Part shown: positions 2,875 through 59,766 of the stretch, piece after piece
How positions within the stretch are numbered: the stretch's first letter is position 1
Layout of the letters: each line of letters opens with the position of its first letter
Origin: an uncultured bacterium
GTDB taxonomy: Bacteria > Schekmanbacteria > GWA2-38-11 > J061
DNA length: 64,000 nt
NCBI GenBank assembly: GCA_964549305.1
Contig: CAZJVM010000001.1
Span: 5,217-69,216 of the forward strand
Direction of reading: 5' to 3'
Notes under the pieces: generated by a model
Database searches by the model: none
Told to the model about the DNA's origin: nothing
What the model saw: the letters and a program-made list of their open reading frames with translations, nothing else
Position numbers and translations under genes: made by a program

Positions 2875-3744
2875 CTAATGAATTTGATTGATGTAATCTT
2901 CAATGAGACTGCGGTTTTCAGGAGATATTCTCGAGATGTTTATCCCGGTTGAGTATTTTATTACATCACCTTCGGGAACCTCTATGCATCTGCACACCTT
3001 TCCGTCAATGTAAATGACTTTGTCGTTAATCATGAGATTTACTCCAACGTGGTCATTGGGTTTCAACGGATAAATATGCCGAAGAAGAAGTCCGCTGAGA
3101 CTTATATCCGTTACTTCCGCTTTTTCCTTGTTTTCTTCCATATTTTCCTTGTTTAGACTGTTGCAGTAAGCAAAGGTATTTACGCTGTAACGGGGATAAC
3201 GTCTTTTTTCGAGATATGAGTGTGTCATGGAAATCAATTCCATAAACCTGTCGGGAGAATTGATGGAAAGAAAACCGTCGATGAATGCACTGTTTTTAAG
3301 AAGATTGTTCCAGTAAAGATTCAGTTTTTCTTTTTCAACATCATTCTTTCCGTCTTTTTGAAAAGCTTCCACCGAGTGAAATAACATTACACAGATAACT
3401 TTAATGCCCGCACTTCCCTCGATACCCAAATCAATCTTTTTCTTTAAACGACCAATGAAAAGAAGTGAGTTAGAAATGTAAAGAAAAGGGCAGTAATTAA
3501 TAGTAAAGGGAAAAACTCCGTTCTTCAGGAAGTCTGACGCGTCCCTGAGAAGCGATTCCTTCATCTTTCCCCATTGTTTGGAAAGAAGCGCGAATTCTCT
3601 TCTCGCTGCCTGAGAGTTGCATACTTTATCAGATGATGAAAGCTTGCCTGATATTTCGAGGAATAAGTCTTTTATATTGTCTGACTCAAGATCAAGGTCG
3701 ACAATATCGGGGAGATACTCTTTGAATTCCTCTTTTATAGCCAT
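2875..3744 (-). CDS. PilZ-domain (c-di-GMP binding) protein with an uncharacterised N-terminal domain
   Basis: The C-terminal region carries both PilZ signature motifs: RxxxR (EKRRYPRYSV) and D/NxSxxG (DISLSGLLL). The N-terminal ~190 aa have no motif I recognise. Confidence 0.55.
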   Translation of the reverse strand: MAIKEEFKEYLPDIVDLDLESDNIKDLFLEISGKLSSSDKVCNSQAARREFALLSKQWGKMKESLLRDASDFLKNGVFPFTINYCPFLYISNSLLFIGRLKKKIDLGIEGSAGIKVICVMLFHSVEAFQKDGKNDVEKEKLNLYWNNLLKNSAFIDGFLSINSPDRFMELISMTHSYLEKRRYPRYSVNTFAYCNSLNKENMEENKEKAEVTDISLSGLLLRHIYPLKPNDHVGVNLMINDKVIYIDGKVCRCIEVPEGDVIKYSTGINISRISPENRSLIEDYINQIH

Positions 3745-10900: not shown

Positions 10901-11463
10901 TTGAAATCAGGGGAGGCGGAAATATACTCGGAGAAGCACAATCGGGACAAATAGCCGCAATCGGATATGAACTTTACTGCAAGCTGATAAAAGAGACAAT
11001 AGGTGAAATAAAGGGGAAGGAACAAAAGACTACTCAGTGCAAAGTGGATTTGAAAACCGATGCCCTTATCCCCGATACATTTATCGATGATTCGATGAAA
11101 AGAATATCAGCATACAGAAGAATATCGGAAGCGACTGAGTTAGATGAGCTTGATGAACTGAGAAATGAATTTACCGATAAATACGGCCCTTTGCCGTTGT
11201 CATTTGAAAAGCTTTTGTTGATATCTCAATTGAGAATAGGAGCTCAGAAAAAATTCATCGAGTCAGTGAGCGAAGCGCCGCAGGGGCTGGTTTTTCGCTT
11301 CGCCGGTAATTTTAAAGCGTCCGAATCGTTTCTCAGTAAACTTCTTTCAACTGACAGATATGAGGTGAAGTTTACGGATGATAATTCTATATTTCTTAAA
11401 TCCGGGGATAAAAGCGCTGATAAAGCTAGTCTTGCTCTGGAGTTTGTGGAGTTTGTGGGTTAG
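7981..11463 (+). CDS. mfd: Transcription-repair coupling factor
   Basis: 1160 aa. A UvrB-homology N-terminal region and a CarD/TRCF domain are followed by superfamily-2 helicase motifs ([26 protein letters not shown]). Confidence 0.9.
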
Positions 11464-11469
11464 AGGATA

Positions 11470-13833
11470 TTATATGGACAAATGATGTCCTGATTCCATG
11501 AAGAAATTATTGACGACTTCAGTAAGGTCCAGGATATTGAAAGGTTTGGGCAGACAAGTGCTCTTTGTCTCTTCTATAAATTTTTTTGTTTTTGGGTCAT
11601 AAGTGTCGCCCGTCGTAAAAATCACCTTTTTCTCGATACCGTTTTTCTTGCTCCGCAGGGTGTTATATAGGGTAAATCCGTCGACTCCGGGCATTCTCAG
11701 GTCTGATATTATCAGGTCGTAAGAGTCATTGTTGATTTTATCAAGGGCAGTTTTTCCGTTGTCTGCCGATTCCACTTGATGATTTTTATTCAATATGGAT
11801 ATCATAAGCTCTCTAATCATTGTATCATCGTCGATAACGAGAATTCTTTTCCTGTCATTCGTTTGATCGGTTGTTTCTTTTCTCGGTGTTTTATCTTCTC
11901 CTGCTTCCGGAACTTCCAAGAGGGGTAACTTGATTGTAAATTCAGTTTTGCTGAAAGGTGTGCTTTCCACGTGTATTGTGCCTTTATGGTTGTTGATGAT
12001 GCCGTAACATACGCTCAAGCCGAGCCCGGTGCCGATAGAAGGCTCTTTCGTGGTAAAAAAAGGATCGAAAATTCTCTTCAGGTTCTTTTCCTGTATGCCC
12101 GGTCCGTTATCGCTTATTGTGAGCAGTACGTGTCCGCCCTTATTTACCGAAGTAACGGATATTGTTCCTTCGCTTCCCATCAATGACTGAAAAGCGTTGT
12201 TAATCATATTGATTATTACCTGTTCGACCTGTGTTTCGTCTGCCATTGTGTTTGGCAGGTTATCACACAAGTCGACTGTAAGATTAATGTCACTTGTGTC
12301 AATCTTGTATTTGAAAAGCTTTGTCACTCTTGTAACTATTTCATTTATATTGACTGATTTAAACTGCGGTTTATTATGCCTCGCGAAACCGAGAAGAGAA
12401 TGAATGATATTTTTCGCCCCTTTTGCGCTCAATTCGATTTTTGAAATCATTTCAGACAAGTCGCCGCTTACGTTCATTTCATTAATAATCTGCGCATATC
12501 CTAAAATAGGAGCAAGTTTATTGTTGAGCTCGTGCGTAATTCCGGAAATCATTCCGCCGAGAGACGCGAGTTTCTCAGAATGTAAAAGCTGTTCTTCAAG
12601 CTTCTTTCTTTCGGTTATATCTTTTATAAGAAGGACATTGCCAATAATAGGATTTCCGCTTTTGTCCCGCGGTACGGAGAGGGAAACGAGCACAGGGAAT
12701 GATTTTCCTTTTTTATTCAAAAGGTTTTCTTCAATGCTTCGAATTGTTATATTGTCATCTCCGGACAACCTTTTTCTGAGTAAGCTTGCTTCGTTTCCGT
12801 TGCTTGCCGATGTGTCCGTGTTTTTTCCGTTTCCCTTTTCGGGGAGTATCATAAAAATACTTTTGCCGATAGCTTCAGCAGAGGAGTAACCGAATATATT
12901 TTCTGCTCCCTTATTCCAGTAAATGATTGAATTGTCGGAATTTGCCGTTACAACGGCATCATCGAGACTTTCTATTGTTGATTCTATATAATCGCGCAGA
13001 TAGTCAATAAGCTCGTCTCTTTGTTGTTGAACTGAAATGTCCTTCAGCATCAGGGCAAATCCCTCTACTTCCGCTGACTTGGAATGGATAATCGAAGATC
13101 TCAATTCAACAGGCACAATATCTCCGCTTCGCACTTTTAGCTTGATTTTAACGGGGAGAGAAACCTCTTTTCTTTTTATGAAAAAGAAGTTTTTTGCGAA
13201 TTCTTCAGGGCTGTCGTTTGTAAGAATGCTCAGGTGTTTTCTCAAAATCTCCGCGGGATTGTATCCCGTAAGATTCTTTGAATAATCGTTTGCAAACTGT
13301 ATAACGCCAGAATTGTCTATAATGAGAAAAGCTTCCGGGAATTTAGAGATGATTTCTTCGTACTTGTCAATATGGTATTCGCCGCCTTCCTCTGCCAAAT
13401 CAGCTTTCTTTGATACTGTTTTTTTCTGTTGATGCCTTGATTTTGGAACACTATTAAGCTCTTTGATTTTTTTAATATTCTTGAGGTCAAAACAGATACT
13501 TGTTTTACCGTCTTTTCCAGATGCTTTTTTTGAATAACAGATAAAGTTAAGCTCTACAAGACTGCCGTCTTCGAGCATTCGCTGACTTTGTATGATTTTC
13601 TCTTCATCTGTTTTTAAAATCGAGTTTTTTGCTTCAATGAAATTATTGAATATTTTTTCCGGAATAAGAGGCAGGTAAGAATAGAGAATATCCTCTTTCT
13701 CATAACCGAAGATGCCTTCCGCTAAATCCGACCATCTGGTTACTTTTCCGGAAATGTCGATTTCAAGAAGAAACTTATTATTCTTTAAATTCTTCTCAAT
13801 TTCATTTATTAATGAAGTTTTCATTGGCGTCAA
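11470..13833 (-). CDS. Hybrid sensor histidine kinase (multiple PAS domains, HisKA, HATPase_c, C-terminal receiver)
   Basis: PAS-like repeats come first. The HisKA H-box is ITHELNNKLAPILGYAQI and the HATPase G-boxes are DNGPGI...GTGLGL. The C-terminal receiver carries conserved Asp residues (LVIDDD...ISDLRMPG). Confidence 0.85.
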   Translation of the reverse strand: MTPMKTSLINEIEKNLKNNKFLLEIDISGKVTRWSDLAEGIFGYEKEDILYSYLPLIPEKIFNNFIEAKNSILKTDEEKIIQSQRMLEDGSLVELNFICYSKKASGKDGKTSICFDLKNIKKIKELNSVPKSRHQQKKTVSKKADLAEEGGEYHIDKYEEIISKFPEAFLIIDNSGVIQFANDYSKNLTGYNPAEILRKHLSILTNDSPEEFAKNFFFIKRKEVSLPVKIKLKVRSGDIVPVELRSSIIHSKSAEVEGFALMLKDISVQQQRDELIDYLRDYIESTIESLDDAVVTANSDNSIIYWNKGAENIFGYSSAEAIGKSIFMILPEKGNGKNTDTSASNGNEASLLRKRLSGDDNITIRSIEENLLNKKGKSFPVLVSLSVPRDKSGNPIIGNVLLIKDITERKKLEEQLLHSEKLASLGGMISGITHELNNKLAPILGYAQIINEMNVSGDLSEMISKIELSAKGAKNIIHSLLGFARHNKPQFKSVNINEIVTRVTKLFKYKIDTSDINLTVDLCDNLPNTMADETQVEQVIINMINNAFQSLMGSEGTISVTSVNKGGHVLLTISDNGPGIQEKNLKRIFDPFFTTKEPSIGTGLGLSVCYGIINNHKGTIHVESTPFSKTEFTIKLPLLEVPEAGEDKTPRKETTDQTNDRKRILVIDDDTMIRELMISILNKNHQVESADNGKTALDKINNDSYDLIISDLRMPGVDGFTLYNTLRSKKNGIEKKVIFTTGDTYDPKTKKFIEETKSTCLPKPFNILDLTEVVNNFFMESGHHLSI

Positions 13834-13921
13834 AAGGTTTTAACTTGCTATAATATATATATTTATTTTACTATGTCCAACGAAAAGTAACAAACAATAT
13901 CCATTCACTAATCGGACAATC

Positions 13922-15304
13922 ATGGAAGAAAAAAAGATTTTAGTTGTCGATGACGAAAAAGATATTCTTTCAATGATGTCAAAATTTCTCACCGAAAAGG
14001 GTTATCTCGTTTTTCAGGCGGATTGCCACAAAAAAGCACTCGAAATTGTCAAAAAAGAAGATATAGACCTTGCAATAATAGACCTCGTTATGCCTCAGAC
14101 AAACGGAATTACCGTGTTGAAGGAGCTACACCAGATAAATAGCAGTCTTATCGGTGTGATTGTGACAGGATTTGCTACAATTGATTCGGCAGTGGAGGCA
14201 ATGAAATCAGGCGCTTTTGATTATCTTCAAAAACCCTTCAACCTTGAAGAACTTTTGATGGTCATAAACAAAGCTCTTAAATTCAGAGAGCTTGAAGGGG
14301 AAAATATCTTTCTGAAATCTCAGCTTAAAAGGAAATACAAATTTGACAACTTTGTGGGGTCAAGCGAACCAATGCTTGAAGTTTTTAAAATTATTGAAAC
14401 AGTCGCAAATACTGACAGTACGGTATTGATTTTTGGTGAAAGCGGAACAGGCAAGGAGGTCGTGGCAAAATCCATACATTACAATTCAGGAAGAAGAAAT
14501 AACTATCTCGTACCTGTCAACTGCGGCGCAATTCCCGAAGACTTGCTTGAAACGGAGTTATTCGGACATGTTAAGGGAGCTTTTACCGGAGCCGTAAATA
14601 CGAGAGTCGGTCGTTTTGAGTTCGCTTCGGGAGGAACTATATTTCTTGATGAAATTGGAGATATGTCATTGAGCCTGCAGGTAAAGTTGCTTCGGGTTCT
14701 TCAGGAGAAAGAATTCACACCGGTGGGAGGATCCGCGCCCGTTAAGGTAGATGTGAGAGTGATTGCCGCAACAAATCAGAACCTTGAAAAGGCAGTGGAA
14801 GAGAAAAAATTTCGTGAAGACCTTTTCTACAGACTCAATGTCATCCCCCTGCAACTTCCTCCTTTGCGCGAAAGGAAAAGTGATATACCCCTGCTCGTGG
14901 ATTATTTTATCAGTCAGATGAAAAAAGAGAAAAAGGTGAGAGTCAAAGAGGTGTCAGATGATGTTATGCAAACCTTTATCGATTATGACTGGCCCGGAAA
15001 TGTGAGGGAATTGGAGAACCTCATAGAGAGAATGATGATATTTAGCGGAGACAAAGACCGTCTCACGGCAATTGATTTACCCGATAAATTCAAAAAAAGA
15101 AAAACCAAATCCCGTTCCTACCAAATTAGGCTTCCACTGGACGGACTTCCCCTAAAAAATGTCATCGGGCAAATAGAAGACGACCTTATTGTGCAGGCAT
15201 TGGAAAGGACTGGAGGTGTCAAGGAAAAGGCGGCAAAACTTTTAAAACTCAACCGCACCACGCTTGTCCAGAAAATAAAAAAAAGAAAAATCTCCGGCGG
15301 TTAA
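13922..15304 (+). CDS. Sigma-54-dependent two-component response regulator (NtrC family: REC + AAA+ + Fis-type HTH)
   Basis: Receiver domain ([10 protein letters not shown]...IDLVMP). AAA+ Walker A (GESGTGKE) and the sigma-54 contact motif GAFTGA ([10 protein letters not shown]). C-terminal HTH ([21 protein letters not shown]). Confidence 0.9.
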
Positions 15305-15492
15305 TATTCTTTTTTGAGTGCTCGTTTAATCCCTGAGCGTTAAAAAAATAACGCTTTCCATTTGAAACGGCAAAAAATTGCCTGTCTATGAGCATATAAT
15401 TCCTCTTGAAGTAGAAAAATACTTTTCTCTATAAAATTTATCTCATTGATTAATAAGAGAAAAATAAAATTTAGATATATTCCCCGCGTCTA

Positions 15493-15508
15493 TGGCATAT
15501 TTCTTGCT
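15493..15508 (+). promoter_or_regulatory. Candidate sigma-54 (-24/-12) promoter upstream of flhG-fliA
   Basis: TGGCATatttcTTGCT matches TGGCAC-N5-TTGCW, with GG and GC at canonical spacing. It lies about 37 nt upstream of the flhG start and immediately downstream of a sigma-54 activator gene. Confidence 0.5.
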
Positions 15509-15544
15509 TAATTCCTGAGAAAAACTTCTTTAACGGAAAAAATT

Positions 15545-16390
15545 TTGCTTAAAAATATGCCATCAAAAAAGATAATCAGTATTACAAGCGGAAAAGGAGG
15601 AGTCGGGAAAAGTACGCTTGTTTTTAACATTGCGTTGTCACTTAATAAACAGGGCGCCAATGTACTTGTTCTTGACGCGGATCTTTCCCTTGGAAATATG
15701 GACCTCTTTGCAGGAGTTAAACCTCTTTTTACGCTAAAAGATGTTTTTGATGGAAACAGAAGTCTTGATGATGTGGTAATAGAGGTTAAAAAGGGGTTGA
15801 AAATTATCCCCACTTCCTCCGGAGATGAAACACTTTGCAATCTTTCGGACAAGCAGGAGATAAATCTTGTTTCCGCTTTTGATAACCTGAAATCATCCTT
15901 TGATATTCTTCTCATAGATACGGATGCGGGTATCTCCGCAAATGTAATATATTTTTCGACAATATCTCAGGAAATTGTTCTTGTCATAACTCCTGATCCG
16001 GCATCGCTTCATGATTCTCTCGCGCTGATTAACCTTCTTTCGAATAAGTACGGAGAAAAATCTTTTAATGTCGTTGTTAACTGTGTGCGCACCAAAGAGG
16101 AGATGGGAAGCGTTTTTTCATCTTTCAGCAATATGGTGGACAAGGAAAACTGCAACGTGCGCCTGAACTATATGGGGGCTGTTCATTTTGACAATAAAAT
16201 GGTCGAGGCCGTCAAAAAACAATCGGCGGTGAGTGAGCTTTATCCCAAGTCCTTGTCGTCAAAAGATATTAAAAAAATCGCCGCAACGATAATGGCAATG
16301 CCTTCACAACCATTTCCAAAGGGAAATGTGCAGATTTTACTCGGAGATTTTTTGGAGCAAAGCAGAAACAAGGAAAAATATAACCTTTAA
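15545..16390 (+). CDS. flhG: MinD/ParA-family ATPase, FlhG (FleN)-like flagellar number regulator
   Basis: Deviant Walker A (SGKGGVGKST). A MinD-like protein immediately upstream of fliA, as in flhF-flhG-fliA loci. Confidence 0.7.
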   Translation: MLKNMPSKKIISITSGKGGVGKSTLVFNIALSLNKQGANVLVLDADLSLGNMDLFAGVKPLFTLKDVFDGNRSLDDVVIEVKKGLKIIPTSSGDETLCNLSDKQEINLVSAFDNLKSSFDILLIDTDAGISANVIYFSTISQEIVLVITPDPASLHDSLALINLLSNKYGEKSFNVVVNCVRTKEEMGSVFSSFSNMVDKENCNVRLNYMGAVHFDNKMVEAVKKQSAVSELYPKSLSSKDIKKIAATIMAMPSQPFPKGNVQILLGDFLEQSRNKEKYNL

Positions 16391-16405
16391 AAAGGGTATG
16401 GTACA

Positions 16406-17218
16406 ATGAAAAAAGTTATTTTAAAAAGGAAGTCGCGACGCAAAACGCTTAACAGTAAATTAGTAAACAGAGAAGAATTAATCGTTCAGTATTTGCCGCT
16501 AACGCGCTCGATTGCGGAAAGAATATCCACGAGACTCCCTAATAATGTTGAAATCGACGAGCTTGTTGCAGCCGGCATAATGGGATTGATGGATGCGGCA
16601 GACAAGTTTGACCCTTCCAAGCAGATTAAATTCAAAACATACGCCGAATTCAGGATAAGGGGCGCCATACTTGACGAACTGCGCGCGATGGACTGGCTTC
16701 CCAGGTCCCTGAGAAGAAAAACTTCCCAAATTGACAATGCCCGTTTCACTTTAGAACAGCAATTGGGGAGACACGCTACGGATAAAGAGGTCGCGGAGCA
16801 TATGAACATAGACATCGAAGAATTATATGATATGATAAACAGCGTAAAAGGAAAATCTCTTCTTTCTCTGGATGAACCGATAGACGGAGATTCAAAAAGC
16901 AGAACACTTCTTGAATGCCTTGTAAGCAAAGATTCTCAGGACCCGCATTCACTTGCAAGCTTAAAAGAAATGAAGGAGATGATAGCAAAGGCAATTGACC
17001 TTCTTCCGGAAAAGGAAAGGCTTGTAATTTCGCTTTACTACTATGAAGAACTGACTATGAAAGAAATAGGGCAGATTATGAATGTTACGGAGTCAAGAGT
17101 GTCACAGATTCACACAAAAGCCGCGATGTCGCTAAAATCGAAGCTTAAAAAAGTATCAAAAGAAAAATCGGTTCCTTCTTTTAAAACAACTGAATCCGCT
17201 TTCGGGAATTCAATATAA
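16406..17218 (+). CDS. fliA: RNA polymerase sigma factor sigma-28 (FliA/WhiG family)
   Basis: Sigma-70 region 2 (YAEFRIRGAILDELR), region 3 and region 4 (ISLYYYEELTMKEIGQIMNVTESRVSQIH) are present. Length is 270 aa. Confidence 0.85.
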   Translation: MKKVILKRKSRRKTLNSKLVNREELIVQYLPLTRSIAERISTRLPNNVEIDELVAAGIMGLMDAADKFDPSKQIKFKTYAEFRIRGAILDELRAMDWLPRSLRRKTSQIDNARFTLEQQLGRHATDKEVAEHMNIDIEELYDMINSVKGKSLLSLDEPIDGDSKSRTLLECLVSKDSQDPHSLASLKEMKEMIAKAIDLLPEKERLVISLYYYEELTMKEIGQIMNVTESRVSQIHTKAAMSLKSKLKKVSKEKSVPSFKTTESAFGNSI

Positions 17219-17224
17219 CAGATT

Positions 17225-17914
17225 ATGAGCGAACAAGATAAAAAAAAGGACATCCTTTTAAACATTCATCATACCTTTCTTTTGGGAAAAATCACAGGAG
17301 ATTTATTCCACGAAATCAATAATATGGTGGGGGCGTCAATTGGTTTTGCGCAACTTGCAAAAATGAGTATGGGCGAAGATGATGTGAATAAACTCATCGA
17401 TGTTGTTTTAAACTCCACGGAAAAAATCAAGGAAATAAGCAAATCCGCGCAGACCTACCTCAGTTATTCAAACAATAACGGGTCGCTTGTGGATATTTCA
17501 GATGTACTCTGCCACTGCGTTACATTGTCAAGAAAAAGCCTGATAAAACGGGGAATTAAAATATCTGATTGTGACAAAAAACTCATAGCTTTTCAAACCG
17601 ATGTAAGGACCTTGAAGCATGCCATTTTAAGTTTTATTTCCTTCATTACGGAGAATAACGAAATCGGCGGCACTCTTGATTTGAAAGCGGAAAAAATTAA
17701 TGAAACCCAGGTTAAGATTGAATTTTTTAAAGATGATTTATGCGTTGAAAAAATTAATGAAATTATACGCGATTTTGACAACCTGGATTTTATGGAAAAT
17801 TTGGAAAATGACTGTTATATGGCATTGTATTTGATTCAAAAAGTATTGGGCGCTTCCACGGAAATTTCAAAGTCAACCTTTTCATTTATCATTGACGAAA
17901 TCGTTTCCCAATAG
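17225..17914 (+). CDS. Degenerate histidine-kinase-like protein (HisKA-like H-box, ATP-binding boxes eroded); hypothetical regulator
   Basis: H-box-like segment (FHEINNMVGASIGFAQLA) and a partial N-box-like stretch (LKHAILSFISFITENN). No DxGxG or GxGxG G-boxes. It sits between fliA and flgM, 6 nt after the fliA stop. Confidence 0.45.
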   Translation: MSEQDKKKDILLNIHHTFLLGKITGDLFHEINNMVGASIGFAQLAKMSMGEDDVNKLIDVVLNSTEKIKEISKSAQTYLSYSNNNGSLVDISDVLCHCVTLSRKSLIKRGIKISDCDKKLIAFQTDVRTLKHAILSFISFITENNEIGGTLDLKAEKINETQVKIEFFKDDLCVEKINEIIRDFDNLDFMENLENDCYMALYLIQKVLGASTEISKSTFSFIIDEIVSQ

Positions 17915-18082
17915 AACCTTTCTTTTTCATTCCCTTATGTTTACTGTTTTGCGATATCCTTATAAATCAAAAGCGTAGCTGAACGCGTCGAGTCACTATG
18001 TCAACGGGATGTTATTCCGTCTAAAGTAGCAGCAAAAATATGACGAGGAATAGCTATTCTTTAAAGAGGTAAATCCTTAAAA

Positions 18083-18310
18083 ATGAAAAAGAATAGAGAT
18101 TCCCTCGAAGCAGTTAAGAAAATGCTTCCCTTTGTTGAAAACGACAGAGAAAGAGAAGAAAGAGTCCTGTATATTAAAAGTCTTGTTGAGAAAGGTAAAT
18201 ACAAATCCAATTCCGGTAAAATTGCCCAAAAAGTTATAAATGACCAGCTTGTTGATGAATATATGATGTTTTTACCCATCCTTATGTATCTCGCAAAAGA
18301 ATGTAAATAA
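18083..18310 (+). CDS. flgM: Anti-sigma-28 factor FlgM-like
   Basis: 75 aa. The C-terminal segment IKSLVEKGKYKSNSGKIAQKVINDQL matches the conserved FlgM sigma-28-binding helix (consensus roughly AIxxGxYxVDxxKIAdKLL). It is adjacent to fliA. Confidence 0.55.
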   Translation: MKKNRDSLEAVKKMLPFVENDREREERVLYIKSLVEKGKYKSNSGKIAQKVINDQLVDEYMMFLPILMYLAKECK

Positions 18311-18370
18311 TCGTTAACCAATCATTTGTGATTTATCAATCTTCCATTTGCAGTTTATTTAAAATCAAAG

Positions 18371-18386
18371 TATTTGCGGGCAAATA
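18371..18386. promoter_or_regulatory. Perfect palindrome TATTTGC-GG-GCAAATA downstream of flgM and upstream of gshA
   Basis: 7-bp inverted arms were seen directly. It could be an operator or a weak stem-loop. No U-tract follows. Confidence 0.25.
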
Positions 18387-18487
18387 CCCCCCTCTGTGAT
18401 TAAAATCCTTGATTTGAACACCAGGAAAAATATATAAGAATTTTAAACATTCATTAATAAAATATACTTTAATAAATTGGGACCATC

Positions 18488-40529: not shown

Positions 40530-40844
40530 ATGAATAAAGCTAATAGGGCTAAAAAAGAAACAAAAGTTGATATTTTCGGAAAAACCTATAACCTTGTGTT
40601 TGACGGTGACGAAAACCATTTTAATGAAGTGACCACTTACCTTAACGAAAAGATGGAGGAAATTCACAACAGTACAAGAATGGTTGATTCAATTAAAGTA
40701 GCTGTATTGGCGGCATTGAAAATAACCGATGAGTTGTTAACTTTAAAAAAAGAAATGGACAGTGTGGTTAATCTTGACAATGAGAAAACAGAGATGTTGA
40801 TAAATCTCATTGACAGCAATATAGAAGAAGTAAGAAATGCTTAA
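40530..40844 (+). CDS. zapA: Cell division protein ZapA
   Basis: 104 aa. The N-terminal beta region VDIFGKTYNLVFDGDENHF is followed by a C-terminal coiled coil. Confidence 0.7.
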   Translation: MNKANRAKKETKVDIFGKTYNLVFDGDENHFNEVTTYLNEKMEEIHNSTRMVDSIKVAVLAALKITDELLTLKKEMDSVVNLDNEKTEMLINLIDSNIEEVRNA

Positions 40845-40849
40845 AAGTC

Positions 40850-41139
40850 GCATGGTGGGAAATTTAAAATGGGAATTATTTAAATTTCCTATGGGGAAAA
40901 GAAAGAGAAAAAGAGTTTTTGAATAAAAGGTGAATGAATTACAAAATGAAAAAAAGTTTTAAAAATATATGGTTGTCGGTTTTGAAACAATATACACGGA
41001 TTATAAAATCCGATTTGTTCACCTTGAATAAGTCATACGATTGCGAAGAATTTGCTTTCTAACAGTCATATGAATAACTGATTATTTTCTTTTTCTAACT
41101 TAGTTTAGGCACTTATACGGTGTCCGGTTTCCCACCTGC
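40850..41139 (+). ncRNA. ssrS: Candidate 6S RNA (ssrS) between zapA and the 5-formyltetrahydrofolate cyclo-ligase gene
   Basis: A 345-nt non-coding gap separates the zapA stop (40844) from the likely ygfA start (41189), in the conserved zapA-ssrS-ygfA arrangement known from E. coli. A 12-bp long-range pairing (GCA-t-GGTGGGAAA at 40850-40862 with TTTCCCACC-TGC at 41128-41139) could form a closing stem. Internal hairpins GGAAATTTAA/TTAAATTTCC and CGGAT-tataaa-ATCCG are present. At ~290 nt this is longer than typical 6S RNA. Confidence 0.3.
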
Positions 41140-41188
41140 ATTACTTCCGAGAAGGTTAATTTTGAACAAAAAAAGCGTCAGGAAAAAA

Positions 41189-41755
41189 ATGCAGGCATTG
41201 AGGAAAAAACTGAATGTAGAAAGAGCTAAGACATATTCTGATATTGCCTGTAATAAACTTCTTTCATTTGCCCCTCTTTTAAGATCCGGCACGGTTTCCT
41301 GCTATTCCTCAAAACCTGAAGAATTACAGACAGACAAGCTCATTATCCGCCTTGTTGAAATAGGCAAAAAAGTTGCATTGCCTAAGGTTGACCAAAAAAA
41401 TAATAAAATGGACTTTTATTATATAAATTCTCCTGAAAAAGACCTGGAGACCGGTTTTATGGGAATAATGGAACCTAAAACGGGTTTGAAAAAGGTAGAA
41501 GATGTTACCGAAATTGATTTTACAATCATTCCCGCGCTTTCAGTTGATGTTGAAGGAAATCGAATCGGTTTCGGAGGCGGTTTTTTTGACAGATATTTTA
41601 AAAGCCGGGAGAAAAGAAATATATTGTGCGGATTGGTTTTCGATTTTCAAATTTTAGAATGTATCCCGTATGATTCCCGAGATGTAAAACTTGATTTTGT
41701 TATTTCTGAAAAAAGAATCATCTCTTGCGGGAAAGAAATAAGCAGAGTTCATTAA
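41189..41755 (+). CDS. ygfA: 5-formyltetrahydrofolate cyclo-ligase
   Basis: GFGGGFFDR motif and an N-terminal [11 protein letters not shown] region similar to B. subtilis YqgN. The start was moved to the internal ATG; the upstream GTG extension has no homology. Confidence 0.75.
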
Positions 41756-43376: not shown

Positions 43377-44183
43377 TTAATCGTTCAGACCGGTAATCTT
43401 TTCTTCAATATCTGTCAACGCCCTTGAAAGGTTGTTGAGCGTTCTTCTCGCGTCCAGTATCTTGTCTTCAAGGTCTGCAATTGACTTTGTAATATATTTG
43501 TTGTTGCTGTTTCCATTGCCGTTACCGTTTGCGGGAATGACTTTTGTAGATTTGTTTGCAGTCGTCTCATAGGCTCGACTTTTGTTTACAATCGGTTTTT
43601 TCGACAATTGAACCTGTTCGATTGTTTTTTTGGAGATACATTTCAAGGTTTCAAATACGCCTTCTCCCCTGATTGCCGAAGACGCGAATGAATCAAGTCC
43701 CATAGGGTTTATAATCGCATTCAGCTCATCGATTGACGAAATTTCCTCGAGGTCTCTCTTGTTGTATTGAAAAACTATGGGGATGCTGTCTATGCTCAGT
43801 CCGCTTTCCTGTAAATTGATTTTCAGGTCTTCAAAACTTTCAAGGTTTGCCTCAACCTGATCCTTCTGAGAGTCTGCGACAAATACAACGGCATCAACGC
43901 CTTTAAGGACAAGCTTTCTCGTAGAAGTCAACTGTACCTGACCGGGAGTTGTGTAAAGTTGAATTTTTATGTTCATCCCTCTGATTTTTCCAAGATTCAT
44001 CGGCAGCAAATCAAAGAAAAGGGTGCGGTCGGTTTCAGTGCGCATCGATAAGAGTTTTCCTCTCGTCTCGGGGTCGCTTTTGTTGTAAATAAATTCGAGA
44101 TTGGTGGTTTTTCCGCCCCTCGCGGGACCGTAGTACACGATTTTTATTATTGCTTCATCTAAAGCAACATTGAATATAGCCAT
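43377..44183 (-). CDS. mglA: MglA-like Ras-family small GTPase with ~70-aa C-terminal low-complexity/coiled-coil extension
   Basis: N-terminal 195 aa align closely with Myxococcus MglA: KIVYYGPARGGKTTNLEFIYNK, TETDRTLFFDLLP, LYTTPGQV, LKGVDAVVFVADSQ, QYNKRDL. The extension contains NGNGNGNSNN and a predicted coiled coil. No mglB gene is adjacent. Confidence 0.8.
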   Translation of the reverse strand: MAIFNVALDEAIIKIVYYGPARGGKTTNLEFIYNKSDPETRGKLLSMRTETDRTLFFDLLPMNLGKIRGMNIKIQLYTTPGQVQLTSTRKLVLKGVDAVVFVADSQKDQVEANLESFEDLKINLQESGLSIDSIPIVFQYNKRDLEEISSIDELNAIINPMGLDSFASSAIRGEGVFETLKCISKKTIEQVQLSKKPIVNKSRAYETTANKSTKVIPANGNGNGNSNNKYITKSIADLEDKILDARRTLNNLSRALTDIEEKITGLND

Positions 44184-56978: not shown

Positions 56979-57341
56979 AAAGAATGAAGTTTATGGCAAC
57001 AGAGTATAATGACTGAAAGTGCAAGTTGTCAATAATCATAAAAATAAAAACCGGGCAAACAATTTGTAGCTTATAAAAGCATCAGAGGGTGTCAGGAAGA
57101 AAGCATATTCTATATCAATCATTTGTTGCTCACAGCGACGATAAATGGTTTGTAAATACAGCAGGTTAGCTATCATTGCTATGTCCTTTAAATGATTGTT
57201 TGCTATGCTATCTAATTGATTTATCAATAAATAAATTGTTTTTTCGCGGTAAAAAAAATATTTTATTGGATATGAGATTAAAGGTTTTTAAGGAAAGTGG
57301 CGACAATATATGGTATAAATGCTGCTAATGGGGGAGGTGGC

Positions 57342-57788
57342 ATGAAAAAAATATCGCTTAAAAAATCTGAAGACGCGTTTACACTTGTAGAAATTCTTGT
57401 TGCCATAGTAATCCTTTCTGTAGGACTTCTCTCAATAGCAAGTTTGGTTACAACTGTTATCAGGGGTAACGCAAAGAGCAGGCGAATGACTACGGCAATA
57501 ACTCTTGCGCAAACGAAAATAGAAGAGTTGAAAAATCTGGATTATGACGATAGCAAACTCGAAGATTCAAATACGGGCAACAATTCAAGCCTTACAAGCA
57601 CATCATCCACTGACCACAGCGAAGCGGATATAGACGCGGAAGGGGGAACAGGGGGAATTTATACGAGAATATGGAATGTTGCCGATGACACTCCTTCAAC
57701 GAATATGAAAACTATTACGGTTATCATAAAGTGGGAAGAAAAGGGCAAGGAAAGAAAGACTGCGTTTACAACTATAATATCGGAATGA
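57342..57788 (+). CDS. pilV: Type IV pilus minor pilin, PilV-like (prepilin-type N-terminal domain)
   Basis: MKKISLKKSEDA|FTLVEILVAIVILSVGLLSIASL: class III signal with Glu at +5, PilV-like (compare Pseudomonas PilV ...GFSMIEVLVALLVLAIGVLGLASL). A strong GGGGGAGG Shine-Dalgarno lies upstream. Ala rather than Gly at -1 is atypical. Confidence 0.6.
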   Translation: MKKISLKKSEDAFTLVEILVAIVILSVGLLSIASLVTTVIRGNAKSRRMTTAITLAQTKIEELKNLDYDDSKLEDSNTGNNSSLTSTSSTDHSEADIDAEGGTGGIYTRIWNVADDTPSTNMKTITVIIKWEEKGKERKTAFTTIISE

Positions 57789-57797
57789 GGATGAAAA

Positions 57798-58703
57798 GTG
57801 CGCGTGAAAAATAACAGGAATGGATTTACGCTTATAGAGTTGATGGTGTCGATACTTCTCGCATCTATACTTATGGTTACATTTTATACTCTTCTTACCA
57901 GTCAGCAGAGAACATACAACAGTCAGGATTTGATTGTTGAAATGCAGCAAAATGTGAGGACGGCAATGGATACTTTGACGAGGGAATTCAGGTCAATCGG
58001 ATACGGAGTGCCTACTGCCGACACCCCTTCGGAAATTGCCGTTATAAGCAGCGCGACGGAAAACACCATAACCTTTCTCGTTGACCTTGATAATGTGAAG
58101 GCGACACTTACTGCCGACTACACGGCAGGAAATACTACTCTTTCCGTTGACACGGTGTCGGAGACATCTTCCGACAGTTATTATGGCAATTTTTCCGCAG
58201 GTGATACAATATATATAACTGACGGAAGCAAGTGGGAAGCCACTGACGTGTCATCTACTTCCCAGGGGAGTTTGGGTATCGGGGCTTTAACCAATGATTT
58301 TTCCCAGGGGTCGGTGCTTCACGTAATCAACACAATTACGTATGCCCAGAATCCATCCGACCACAAACATTCGACTGATGCGCCAACCATTAAATTGACG
58401 CGGTCTGTTGACGGAAGCACGGCACAACCGGTAGTCGATGACATTGATTATCTTGAATTCAAATACTATGATGATTCGGACAGTCAGGTCGGTTCAGCGA
58501 CTCCATACAAGAGTGTAAGTTTATCTTCCGGTGATGTAGGCGACGTAAGGAAAATAAAAGTTCTTTTTATCGCGCGAACATCGAGAGAAGATCCAAGCTA
58601 CTCGAGTTCCGGGGTCTATAACTGCGGCGACAAATACAGCGACCAATATCACAGATTAACACTGGAATCGGAAATAAAATTAAGAAATGCAGGATTGGAA
58701 TGA
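57798..58703 (+). CDS. pilW: Type IV pilus minor pilin, PilW-like
   Basis: MRVKNNRNG|FTLIELMVSILLASILMV is a canonical prepilin leader and methylation motif. PilW-like length (301 aa) and position after pilV. GTG start. Confidence 0.65.
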   Translation: MRVKNNRNGFTLIELMVSILLASILMVTFYTLLTSQQRTYNSQDLIVEMQQNVRTAMDTLTREFRSIGYGVPTADTPSEIAVISSATENTITFLVDLDNVKATLTADYTAGNTTLSVDTVSETSSDSYYGNFSAGDTIYITDGSKWEATDVSSTSQGSLGIGALTNDFSQGSVLHVINTITYAQNPSDHKHSTDAPTIKLTRSVDGSTAQPVVDDIDYLEFKYYDDSDSQVGSATPYKSVSLSSGDVGDVRKIKVLFIARTSREDPSYSSSGVYNCGDKYSDQYHRLTLESEIKLRNAGLE

Positions 58704-58704
58704 T

Positions 58705-59766
58705 ATGAAAAATAACAAAATGTTAAGCAATGAGTCGGGATTTGTCCTTGCACTTGCAATGTTTCTTCTTGCTATTCTCACTGTGATCGGTCTCGGCGCG
58801 ATTTTGATTACATCGACAGAGCTTAAGATATCGGGGAATCTCAGAACTGCTACCGATGCCCTGTATGTGGCAGAGGGAGGTATGGAAATTACTGAAGGAA
58901 AATTGAAGGCAAACGCAGTGAGCAATTTTGCAGGAACAAGCGGGACAACAAGCAATACGCAGATTTATGTCGTAGGAAAATCACCTAAAAACACCATTAA
59001 AAATCCTTTAAACTGGGTTGACACAAGCTGGTATATAGATTCGGATATGACCACGCCCCTGTCCGAGGGCAATGCGGAAACCGTGACTGCTCTTTATAAC
59101 AAATATACTATTGGTTCCGGGGAAGCCAATATTACACTGCCAAGACCTCAGTGGTTGTGGGTAAATCCCACGATTGTGGCGTTCAGAAACGTCAGGTCCA
59201 CATTCTCGGGAACAAATGCCAAAAAAGTGGAAGCGGATATTGAAATAAGATTTGAAAATAATCTCCTTTCCTTTCAGGTGTTCAAAGACCCTTCTGACGG
59301 TGTATCCGATGTTGACAATATTTCCAACAACAATGTTATAATAGGAGGTACAGGTTATGATTTTGGAATCGATCCTGCATTAAGCAAGATTACGGGAATT
59401 TGCACGAACGATAACAGTACGAAAGCTATTATAATTTATAGGGATGGGGACAACAATTTAGCGACTTCAGACTGGACAATAGTCGGAGAACCGGAGATTA
59501 ACACGACTAACAGTACATTTTGCCTCAGCAATGCGAGAGGTTACAGATATACAGCTTTGGGTGGTGCCGGGTCAAAAGAACCGGTAGCGGTTTTAAGCGC
59601 AAGCGAATATATTCCCGATACTACGGGCGCGCCTGTTTTGTCAATCAGTAACGGGGAAATTTACAAGGTTGAACTTGTCGATATATCTATGCTTTCACGA
59701 AGTGCCGGAAATCCGGCGGGTTCATCGGCAGGAAGCTGGGTGTCGAATACTTATAATCAATGGTAA
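58705..59766 (+). CDS. pilX: Type IV pilus minor pilin, PilX-like (PilX_N domain)
   Basis: ESGFVLALAMFLLAILTVIGLGAILITSTELKISGN matches the PilX N-terminal domain consensus (QRGxALxVALxxLLxLTLLGxxAxxxxxLxExMAGN). The start was moved to the ATG after the pilW stop. Confidence 0.6.
   Translation: MKNNKMLSNESGFVLALAMFLLAILTVIGLGAILITSTELKISGNLRTATDALYVAEGGMEITEGKLKANAVSNFAGTSGTTSNTQIYVVGKSPKNTIKNPLNWVDTSWYIDSDMTTPLSEGNAETVTALYNKYTIGSGEANITLPRPQWLWVNPTIVAFRNVRSTFSGTNAKKVEADIEIRFENNLLSFQVFKDPSDGVSDVDNISNNNVIIGGTGYDFGIDPALSKITGICTNDNSTKAIIIYRDGDNNLATSDWTIVGEPEINTTNSTFCLSNARGYRYTALGGAGSKEPVAVLSASEYIPDTTGAPVLSISNGEIYKVELVDISMLSRSAGNPAGSSAGSWVSNTYNQW

Follow-up and report, generated by a model that had tools for sequence, protein, structure and literature searches.

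A candidate signal-controlled accessory sigma-28 module in a lineage of Schekmanbacteria

Sigma-28 is normally controlled from within the flagellar assembly hierarchy. In a 64-kb stretch of DNA from an uncultured Schekmanbacteria bacterium (contig CAZJVM010000001.1 of assembly GCA_964549305.1; hereafter, the window), a compact cluster at 11470–18310 encodes a hybrid PAS histidine kinase, an NtrC-family sigma-54 activator carrying GAFTGA, flhG, fliA, a degenerate histidine-kinase-like gene (here termed X) and flgM, and raises the question of what such a regulatory set controls at a site where no flagellum is encoded. The original prediction, made from the letters of the window, had left two answers standing: a classical FlrBC/FleSR-like tier of a flagellar hierarchy located away from its structural genes, or a sigma-28/FlgM pair recruited to control something else. 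All six genes that it named are present in a listing of open reading frames (ORFs), and Pfam and NCBIfam scans agree with their identities; Pfam scans of nearly all ORFs of at least 100 amino acids (aa) detected no flagellar structural gene in the 64-kb window, in line with what had been noted for the region downstream. We favour, at a probability of about 0.6, a third answer: that the cluster is an accessory sigma-28 module, specific to its lineage and controlled by a signal, in a lineage of Schekmanbacteria that has flagella. A full-text literature search returned nothing on motility or flagella in Schekmanbacteria.

A conserved sigma-54 promoter beside a kinase and activator pair

Related loci were recovered from Logan (L001), ENA and JGI (L002 and L004), ENA (L006 and the most distant locus, L007, with an X that is 28% identical) and NCBI (L005, from the metagenome-assembled genome (MAG) GCA_003695725.1, labelled Candidatus Schekmanbacteria). 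The order mfd, kinase (reverse strand), activator, promoter, fliA, X, gshAB is the same in all of them, and the cluster of the window is likewise flanked by mfd upstream and gshA–gshB downstream. We refer to its flhG and fliA as flhG2 and fliA2, as they prove to be a second set. L007 keeps the kinase, activator, sigma-54 promoter, fliA2 and X but is without flhG2 and flgM, of which tblastn found no remnants. Because L007 is without both, these two genes fall outside the conserved core of the module, which across the loci compared is made up of kinase, activator, sigma-54 promoter, fliA2 and X.

The promoter that had been predicted ahead of flhG2 is an exact match to TGGCAT-N5-TTGCT on the forward strand (TGGCATATTTCTTGCT, 15493–15508), with correct spacing (−24 GG at 15494–15495, −12 GC at 15506–15507), an inferred start near 15519 and a distance of 48 nucleotides (nt) to ATG 15557. 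No other exact TGGCAY-N5-TTGCW occurs in the window, where 0.14 would be expected by chance; at least one such match occurred in 13 of 100 shuffles, and the count by itself carries no significance. What supports the promoter is its conservation between loci. In an alignment of the activator–flhG intergenic regions of the window, L001, L002 and L005 (alignment A2), the columns are mostly scrambled, and four invariant or near-invariant blocks stand out: CGTTAAA-N4-TAACG (15338–15353), GGCAAAAAATTGCC (15369–15382), TTGATTAATAA (15446–15456) and the promoter itself (TGGCATAtTTCTTGC). The 15-nt core of the promoter is invariant in the four sequences except for one spacer base in L005, within intergenic surroundings that have diverged. 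The distant L007 has a matching sigma-54 promoter (TGGCATACTATTTGCT) ahead of fliA, and the promoter is thereby near-invariant over five loci whose X proteins share 28–69% identity.

The two outermost blocks are palindromes and candidate upstream activator sites. Palindrome 1 (CGTTAAAAAAATAACG), about 173 bp upstream of the inferred start, is kept as CGTTAAA-N4-TAACG in the window, L001, L002 and L005 amid diverged DNA; with up to one mismatch allowed, no second copy was found in an intergenic promoter context within the window. Palindrome 2, whose centre is 30 bp from that of palindrome 1 and which lies about 143 bp ahead of the start, has no other exact match in the window and is conserved in L002 and partly in L001 and L005. 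L007 carries two GTTAAC palindromes at a comparable distance upstream of its promoter. Two sites 30 bp apart at about −173 and −143 have the usual geometry for NtrC-type activators. The AT-rich box, about 68 bp upstream of the start and formed by invariant columns of the alignment, is possibly a DNA-bending site; an IHF site was considered there and rejected for its poor fit to WATCAANNNNTTR. A one-mismatch sigma-54-like site at 17820–17835, inside the 3′ end of X, reads TTGAT for TTGC at −12 and was counted as chance. Because the conserved blocks stand as phylogenetic footprints in otherwise diverged DNA, a functional, activator-dependent sigma-54 promoter before flhG2 is well supported.

The two regulators are encoded upstream. 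The hybrid sensor histidine kinase (11470–13833, reverse strand) comprises tandem PAS domains, HisKA, HATPase_c and a C-terminal receiver, with the H-box THELNN (His434) and the receiver Asp711, Thr and Lys in place; domain scans found a complete receiver and no HPt domain. Its orthologues in L001, L002 and L007 occupy the same position at 42–70% identity, with all kinase boxes intact. The receiver contains an invariant segment, IFTTGDTYD, in which FTTGDTY resembles PFxFATGY/FxSGY with two extra residues; we did not accept it as a true FATGUY motif and note it as a hint only. In the divergent intergenic region between kinase and activator (13834–13921), sigma-70-like −35/−10 matches occur on both strands; these are consensus matches only and no evidence of function.

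The activator (13922–15304, forward strand), an NtrC-family enhancer-binding protein, has a receiver with D54, an AAA+ domain with GAFTGA at aa 219–224 (nt 14576–14593) and a Fis-type helix-turn-helix (HTH), which match PF00072, PF00158 (241.6 bits) and PF02954 (HTH_8), respectively. Orthologues are present in L001, L002, L005 and L007, and the HTH segment is identical in L007. A cytoplasmic PAS kinase paired with an NtrC-type sigma-54 activator and tied to flagellar regulatory genes recalls FlrBC, FleSR and FlgSR. Those kinases, however, have no receiver, they lie in flagellar clusters and act on hook–basal-body genes instead of fliA; the activator of the window also falls short of the curated families, scoring 335 bits for FlgR and 340 bits for FlbD against cut-offs of 750, and its best hits, AtoC and NtrC, are likewise below cut-off. 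The proposal that this adjoining pair drives flhG–fliA and the genes downstream fits the conserved promoter and palindromes.

A second flhG–fliA set in a lineage with flagellar genes

The MAG that holds L005 also holds a canonical flagellar cluster (L008, contig RFHX01000202), with flgE, fliL, fliM, fliN, fliO, fliP, fliQ, fliR, flhB, flhA, flhF, flhG (309 aa; its product, FlhG1, is P0033), a 59-aa membrane ORF, fliA (255 aa; fliA1), an HDOD protein and a methyl-accepting chemotaxis protein. Since GCA_003695725.1 contains both L005 and L008, the latter with its own flhF–flhG–fliA, the flhG–fliA pair of the window is, by comparison of these loci, an additional paralogous set served by a different activator, and not the main flagellar tier. 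The small ORF between flhG1 and fliA1 recurs in two species as a hydrophobic protein of 55–59 aa beginning MDR(I/V)P (L008 10945–11124; L013 1398–1565), with no Pfam hit.

Sigma-54 promoters precede flagellar genes in these relatives, before fliL in L008 (TTGGCATAGGCTTTGCA) and before flhG1–fliA1 in L012 (TTGGCACATTAATTGCT), and the lineage seems to have a flagellar hierarchy based on sigma-54 that includes an flhG1–fliA1 of its own. The palindrome CGTTAAA-N4-TAACG is absent at both of these promoters, the two that were checked. Ahead of them lie TTGAC-type direct repeats (L012 200–330; L008 1120–1316), for example TTGACGC-N13-TTGACGC, which are probably the site of a different, flagellar activator.

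FlhG2 (15557–16390, forward strand; ORF open from TTG 15545, with ATG 15557 the likely start) is a MinD/ParA-type ATPase of the FlhG clade, with the deviant Walker A motif SGKGGVGKS and intact ATPase motifs; MinD models score under their cut-offs. A protein search returned four orthologues at 61–99% identity, after which identity falls to 42–46%, the level of annotated FlhG proteins within canonical fliQR–flhB–flhA–flhF–flhG–fliA clusters (L010/L011, L014). The N-terminal motif DQAxxLR, with which FlhG stimulates the FlhF GTPase (bioRxiv 10.1101/2022.03.19.484964), is absent from FlhG2 and its four orthologues, all of which start a few residues before the P-loop. The FlhG1 proteins (P0033, P0042 and P0025) have it, with the N-terminus MDQ(A/E)TSL(R/K). 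No SRP54-type gene that could be an flhF neighbour was found in the window, L001, L002, L005 or L007. FleN is an allosteric anti-activator of the sigma-54 activator FleQ (PMC8528422), and the flhAF–fleN–fliA operon of Pseudomonas putida is sigma-N/FleQ-dependent and repressed by FleN (PMC6424431). Given these precedents and the loss of the FlhF-activating motif, the most economical guess is that FlhG2 acts as a FleN-like feedback brake on a sigma-54 activator rather than as a regulator of FlhF.

FliA2 (16406–17218, forward strand) is a sigma-28 paralogue of the FliA/WhiG family (TIGR02479, 273.2 bits against a cut-off of 189.6) with regions 2, 3 and 4 present (PF04542, PF04539 and PF04545). 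Its identity is 85–90% among close relatives, in which X is conserved at 63–69%, and falls to 57% with L007 and 47% with the canonical FliA1 of L008. Because FliA2 is only 47% identical to FliA1, and as far from it as from an unrelated FliA, its divergence marks it as an old paralogue or an acquired copy and not a recent duplicate. The segments that recognize promoters are nevertheless shared: the region 2.4/3.0 segment F(K/R)TYAE(F/Y)RIRGA(I/M)LDELR..DW(L/V)PRS is essentially the same in FliA2 and FliA1, and the region 4.2 helix TESRVSQIH(T/S)KA is identical, so the two proteins should read the same type of promoter. At its N terminus FliA2 has a strongly basic extension absent in FliA1 (aa 1–18, MKKVILKRKSRRKTLNS; window 16406–16460), and its C-terminal tail is common to the closest relatives.

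The last gene of the cluster, flgM (18083–18310, forward strand), encodes a short FlgM-like anti-sigma-28 protein of 75 aa. Its PF04316 score is marginal (27.4 bits, cut-off 25) and its TIGR03824 score, 24 bits, is under the cut-off of 40.75; the L002 orthologue also matches PF04316. The C-terminal sigma-28-binding motif is typical (IKSLVEKGKYKSNSGKIAQKVI), and IKxLVxKGxYxxxxxKIAxKI is kept in the orthologue of L002 and L004. After this motif comes a conserved hydrophobic tail (aa 55–75, 18245–18307; DEYMMFLPILMYLAKECK in the window, NEYLLFYPLFLYVNQKTNH in L002 at 11015–11239). Together with the short N-terminal part it departs from the usual FlgM, and the protein might be associated with the membrane instead of being exported.

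The check for sigma-28 promoters called for in the original prediction gave, within the window, one weak candidate and otherwise counts equal to chance: the consensus TAAA-N15-GCCGATAA with up to three mismatches matched 102 times against 89 expected, and relaxed TAAAG-N-CGA scans of the window yielded no convincing site except before flgM, and none before the pilin genes. The candidate, TAAAGT-N-GACGAGGA at 18022–18049 (forward strand), is a weak match. The form GTCTAAAGTA-N15-CGA is common to the window and L002 at the same spacing, in these two lineages only, with a spacer one base over consensus; flgM may thus have its own sigma-28-type promoter.

Two sigma-28 paralogues in one genome are known from dual flagellar systems, such as LafS of the lateral flagella of Vibrio parahaemolyticus and the secondary system of Shewanella. 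There the second fliA lies inside a complete second structural set, whereas here it stands amid housekeeping genes with regulators only. That a sigma-54 activator drives flhG–fliA and that FlgM restrains sigma-28 is well known in Pseudomonas and Vibrio, whose FleQ(FlrA) flhF–fleN–fliA operons resemble that of the window in having a sigma-54 promoter and an AAA+ activator that lead to flhG and then fliA, an FlhG-type ATPase that could feed back on the activator, and FlgM acting on sigma-28 (PMC6424431, PMC8528422). The operon of the window differs in having neither flhA nor flhF, and its activator is a phosphorylatable NtrC-type regulator rather than a FleQ-type master regulator. It is further set apart by being a second copy, located away from the flagellar cluster and next to a dedicated pair of hybrid PAS kinase and NtrC-type activator; by an FlhG2 without DQAxxLR; by a lineage-restricted, kinase-dead histidine-kinase-like gene within the operon; and by the reduced fliA2–X form of one lineage.

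X, a kinase-dead relative of histidine kinases

X (17225–17914, forward strand; 229 aa) directly follows fliA2 in every locus, whether flgM is absent or not. It is a stand-alone DHp domain with a degenerate CA domain, and its H-box histidine is His29 (nt 17309–17311). X itself matches no Pfam family at E≤0.001, and kinases only weakly, in their DHp region; a profile search found the solved kinase ThkA, again weakly. Across its family of seven members, HisKA matches in six (best E 2.6e-9), and neither HATPase_c nor the ChpT family PF10090 matches in any, even at E≤1. An AlphaFold2 model (pLDDT 76.6, pTM 0.74) begins with a long hairpin of helices and continues as an alpha/beta domain, and in Foldseek it matches the DHp–CA modules of ZraS, RetS, HK853 and DivL at E ~1e-9.

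The H-box motif of the family is HE(I/V/L)NN, with His29, Glu30 and Asn33 invariant; aligned with the neighbouring and the closest database kinases, X reads F-H-E-(I/V)-N-N against T-H-E-L-N-N. It retains none of the ATP-binding boxes, whether N (NxxxNA, here SFISFI), G1 (DxGxG), F or G2 (GxGxG). As the four ATP-binding boxes are gone and the H-box residues are invariant, sequence and model together identify X as a kinase-dead DHp–CA protein that retains the chemistry around the phospho-acceptor histidine, and the earlier label of a degenerate histidine-kinase-like gene was a fair description. A recent duplication of the neighbouring kinase was rejected as its origin: the DHp domains share 22% identity, and other database kinases score higher.

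The family is small. An exhaustive search of 1.84 billion representatives placed it in three clusters at 50% identity (E<1e-30); the next matches, beginning at E ~1e-25, are ordinary kinases of greater length, which align through the DHp and as far as the middle of the CA domain. Relatives number a handful among 5.8 billion proteins. A profile of X run against GTDB genome contigs, among which the genome of the window is apparently not included, yielded nothing beyond one full-length kinase of a Desulfovibrionales MAG, which is unrelated (19% identity), and a metagenome scan found one short contig, a duplicate of L002. In the JGI contig L004 (584–1211), otherwise identical to L002, X is split into two ORFs of 112 and 102 aa, a split due either to misassembly or to a frameshift in this allele. 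Three proteins of other organisms (P0139, P0151 and P0152) are short (240–270 aa), sensor-less and kinase-like, with an AHE(F/V)NN H-box and partly degenerate ATP-binding boxes, and may belong to a wider undescribed class of stand-alone pseudo-histidine kinases.

What might such a protein do? Hybrid kinases that feed multi-step relays depend on a His-phosphotransfer protein, either an HPt or a pseudo-histidine kinase such as ChpT (PMC9981736). In its modelled architecture X is of the ChpT type, with a DHp carrying the histidine, a degenerate CA, about 230 aa and no sensor domain. The CckA–ChpT–CtrA/CpdR system likewise combines a PAS hybrid kinase with a C-terminal receiver, a small His-bearing protein of DHp and degenerate CA, and a terminal response regulator that is a transcription factor (PMC9981736). 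X differs in deriving from HisKA kinases of the HE(F/L/I)NN type, outside PF10090, in that its terminal regulator would be a sigma-54 activator and in lying within the target operon; phosphotransfer by X is a prediction. We tentatively favour X as the relay partner, at somewhat less than even odds, because the kinase has a receiver but no HPt domain and X has the architecture of a pseudo-histidine kinase and is inseparable from the kinase/activator pair. Phosphate would then pass from kinase His434 to receiver Asp711, to X His29 and to activator D54, and the position of X in the target operon would make this a positive feedback. X may in that case be a second, independently evolved ChpT-like phosphotransferase, here connected to a sigma-54 activator and with its gene inside the operon that it targets.

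The strongest rival concerns this step. X could instead be an output regulator: a phosphatase of the activator, which by dephosphorylating it would provide negative feedback; a protein that inhibits the hybrid kinase by forming a heterodimer with it, in the manner of RetS and GacS; or an anti- or anti-anti-sigma partner of FliA2. H-E-x-x-N is the phosphatase motif of HisKA kinases, it is intact and invariant in X, and it would suit a role as phosphatase only just as well. The top Foldseek matches include two non-canonical kinases, RetS and DivL, and the constant adjacency of X and fliA2, even where flgM is missing, leaves room for a direct role on sigma-28. A pure binding role, on the other hand, needs no invariant histidine with flanking catalytic residues; the DHp of X is only 22% identical to that of the neighbouring kinase; the known anti-sigma factors of the GHKL type have no DHp and retain ATP binding; and the hybrid kinase would still need its His-phosphotransfer partner. 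We regard these other roles, taken together, as less likely than not and as somewhat less likely than the relay.

The proposed circuit, its rivals and the surrounding genes

The circuit that we infer, in its binding and phosphotransfer steps as in its regulon, would run as follows. A signal sensed by the cytoplasmic PAS hybrid kinase would lead to phosphorylation of the neighbouring NtrC-type activator, directly or through a His–Asp–His–Asp relay. The phosphorylated activator would bind the conserved palindromes at about −173 and −143 and open the promoter at 15493–15508, giving an flhG2–fliA2–X transcript that probably includes flgM, to which the candidate sigma-28-type promoter may add. With its predicted FliA1-like specificity, FliA2 would bring an environmental input into the late flagellar and chemotaxis regulon under restraint by the FlgM-like factor, and FlhG2 would more likely brake a sigma-54 activator than regulate FlhF. 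If true, this would be a second, independent entry to sigma-28, from PAS sensor through sigma-54 activator to a duplicate sigma-28, accompanied by an FlhG without the FlhF-activating motif. The locus also offers a defined promoter with two candidate activator sites for a candidate phylum that has no cultured member, testable in a heterologous host.

Several observations weigh against an accessory module of this kind. The search for flagellar genes that the original prediction had called for yielded the canonical cluster in relatives with 63–69% X identity, and not in the genome of the window itself; it is from MAG binning, composition and coverage that L005 and L008 are placed in one genome. 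The palindrome of the activator was not found at the flagellar sigma-54 promoters of L008 and L012, so the link to the flagellar hierarchy is drawn from the nature of the genes alone. The sigma-28 promoter before flgM is weak, flhG2 and flgM are dispensable for the core module (both are missing from L007), and the sequence of X places it outside the ChpT family (PF10090). Moreover, if the only gene for a phosphotransferase lies behind the promoter that the protein helps to activate, basal expression would be needed.

Among the rivals to the module as a whole, non-flagellar recruitment fares best, although we judge it improbable. FliA2 and X, with FlgM where present, would run type IV pili, surface behaviour or stress and glutathione functions while the flagellum keeps FliA1, which would suit a locus that lies amid housekeeping genes and beside gshAB in every lineage, the retention of fliA2–X in L007 after the loss of flhG2 and flgM, an FlhG2 predicted to be unable to activate FlhF, and a FliA2 only 47% identical to FliA1 with a basic extension of its own. 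The near-identical recognition segments of FliA1 and FliA2 nevertheless predict overlapping promoter specificity, sigma-28-like motifs occur at chance level in the window with none convincing before the pilin genes, the presence of an anti-sigma factor of the FlgM type suggests a tie to flagellar export, and the lineage appears flagellated; the suggestion that the sigma-28/FlgM pair serves something else has found no positive support. A bolder variant, a long shot in our estimate, would make FliA2 and X a new sigma-28 control unit in which X links the phosphorylation state of the relay directly to sigma-28, acting as an anti-sigma or anti-anti-sigma factor that depends on phosphorylation; in L007 and lineages like it the unit would replace the FlgM/export checkpoint, and it could drive a non-flagellar regulon.

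That the flagellar contigs L008 and L012 come from another low-GC organism, and that the lineage with the window's cluster is non-flagellated, is equally a long shot. MAGs can be contaminated, but L005 and L008 are close in GC content (34.7% and 35.7%) and in tetranucleotide composition: at r = 0.90, L008 is the best partner of L005, above the true orthologous loci (0.65–0.76) and far above the GC-rich L010 (0.39). The pairing also occurs in two independent datasets, as in ERZ17912254 a canonical FlhG1 contig (P0042, 81% identical to P0033; coverage 2.73) co-occurs with the fliA2–X contig L006 (coverage 2.63), a coverage match at low depth. An FlgM-type factor and an FlhG-clade ATPase are, besides, themselves linked to flagella.

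The classical tier, in which kinase and activator are the equivalents of FlrBC, FleSR or FlgSR and the genome's only flhG–fliA–flgM lies away from the structural genes, is the weakest reading and does not fit as stated: such genes typically belong to flagellar regulation, there are precedents for flhF/flhG/fliA operons under sigma-54 (PMC6424431) and sigma-54 promoters do precede flagellar genes in this lineage, but the MAG with L005 has a canonical flhF–flhG1–fliA1 inside its flagellar cluster, which largely refutes the tier if L005 and L008 are one genome, and FlhG2 without DQAxxLR, a hybrid kinase with a receiver, an activator under the FlgR and FlbD cut-offs and a palindrome missing at the fliL and flhG1 promoters all speak against it.

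The remaining genes of the window are housekeeping genes, among them those for aminoacyl-tRNA synthetases, purine synthesis, pnp and RNase Y; infC, rplT, pheS and purQ were recognized by eye only, outside the Pfam scans. The minor pilins and MglA-like GTPase mentioned in the original prediction are confirmed by Pfam as three prepilin-type genes (N_methyl, PilW and PilX_N; 57297–59766, forward strand) and a small Arf/Ras-like GTPase of 268 aa (43377–44183, reverse strand). No sigma-54 or sigma-28 promoter was found preceding either the GTPase or the prepilin-type genes.

An Rfam scan found no RNA family in the locus. Elsewhere in the window, the segment 40106–41119 is AT-rich (33% GC across 40–42 kb), with long non-coding gaps around zapA (40530–40844), and the gene for 5-formyltetrahydrofolate cyclo-ligase (41120–41755) comes after it. 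In Escherichia coli, 6S RNA (ssrS) is held in an arrangement of zapA and 5-formyltetrahydrofolate cyclo-ligase; the Rfam 6S RNA model has no match in the zapA region here, even at E≤1. Between flgM and gshA, a perfect 8+8 palindrome, GTATTTGC-GG-GCAAATAC, lies at 18370–18387 with no T-run after it, and could be a terminator or a binding site. Near the start of the window, a 289-aa protein (2875–3744, reverse strand) has a PilZ domain at aa 179–287 and an N-terminal half that matches no family; it could be a cyclic di-GMP effector relevant to motility.

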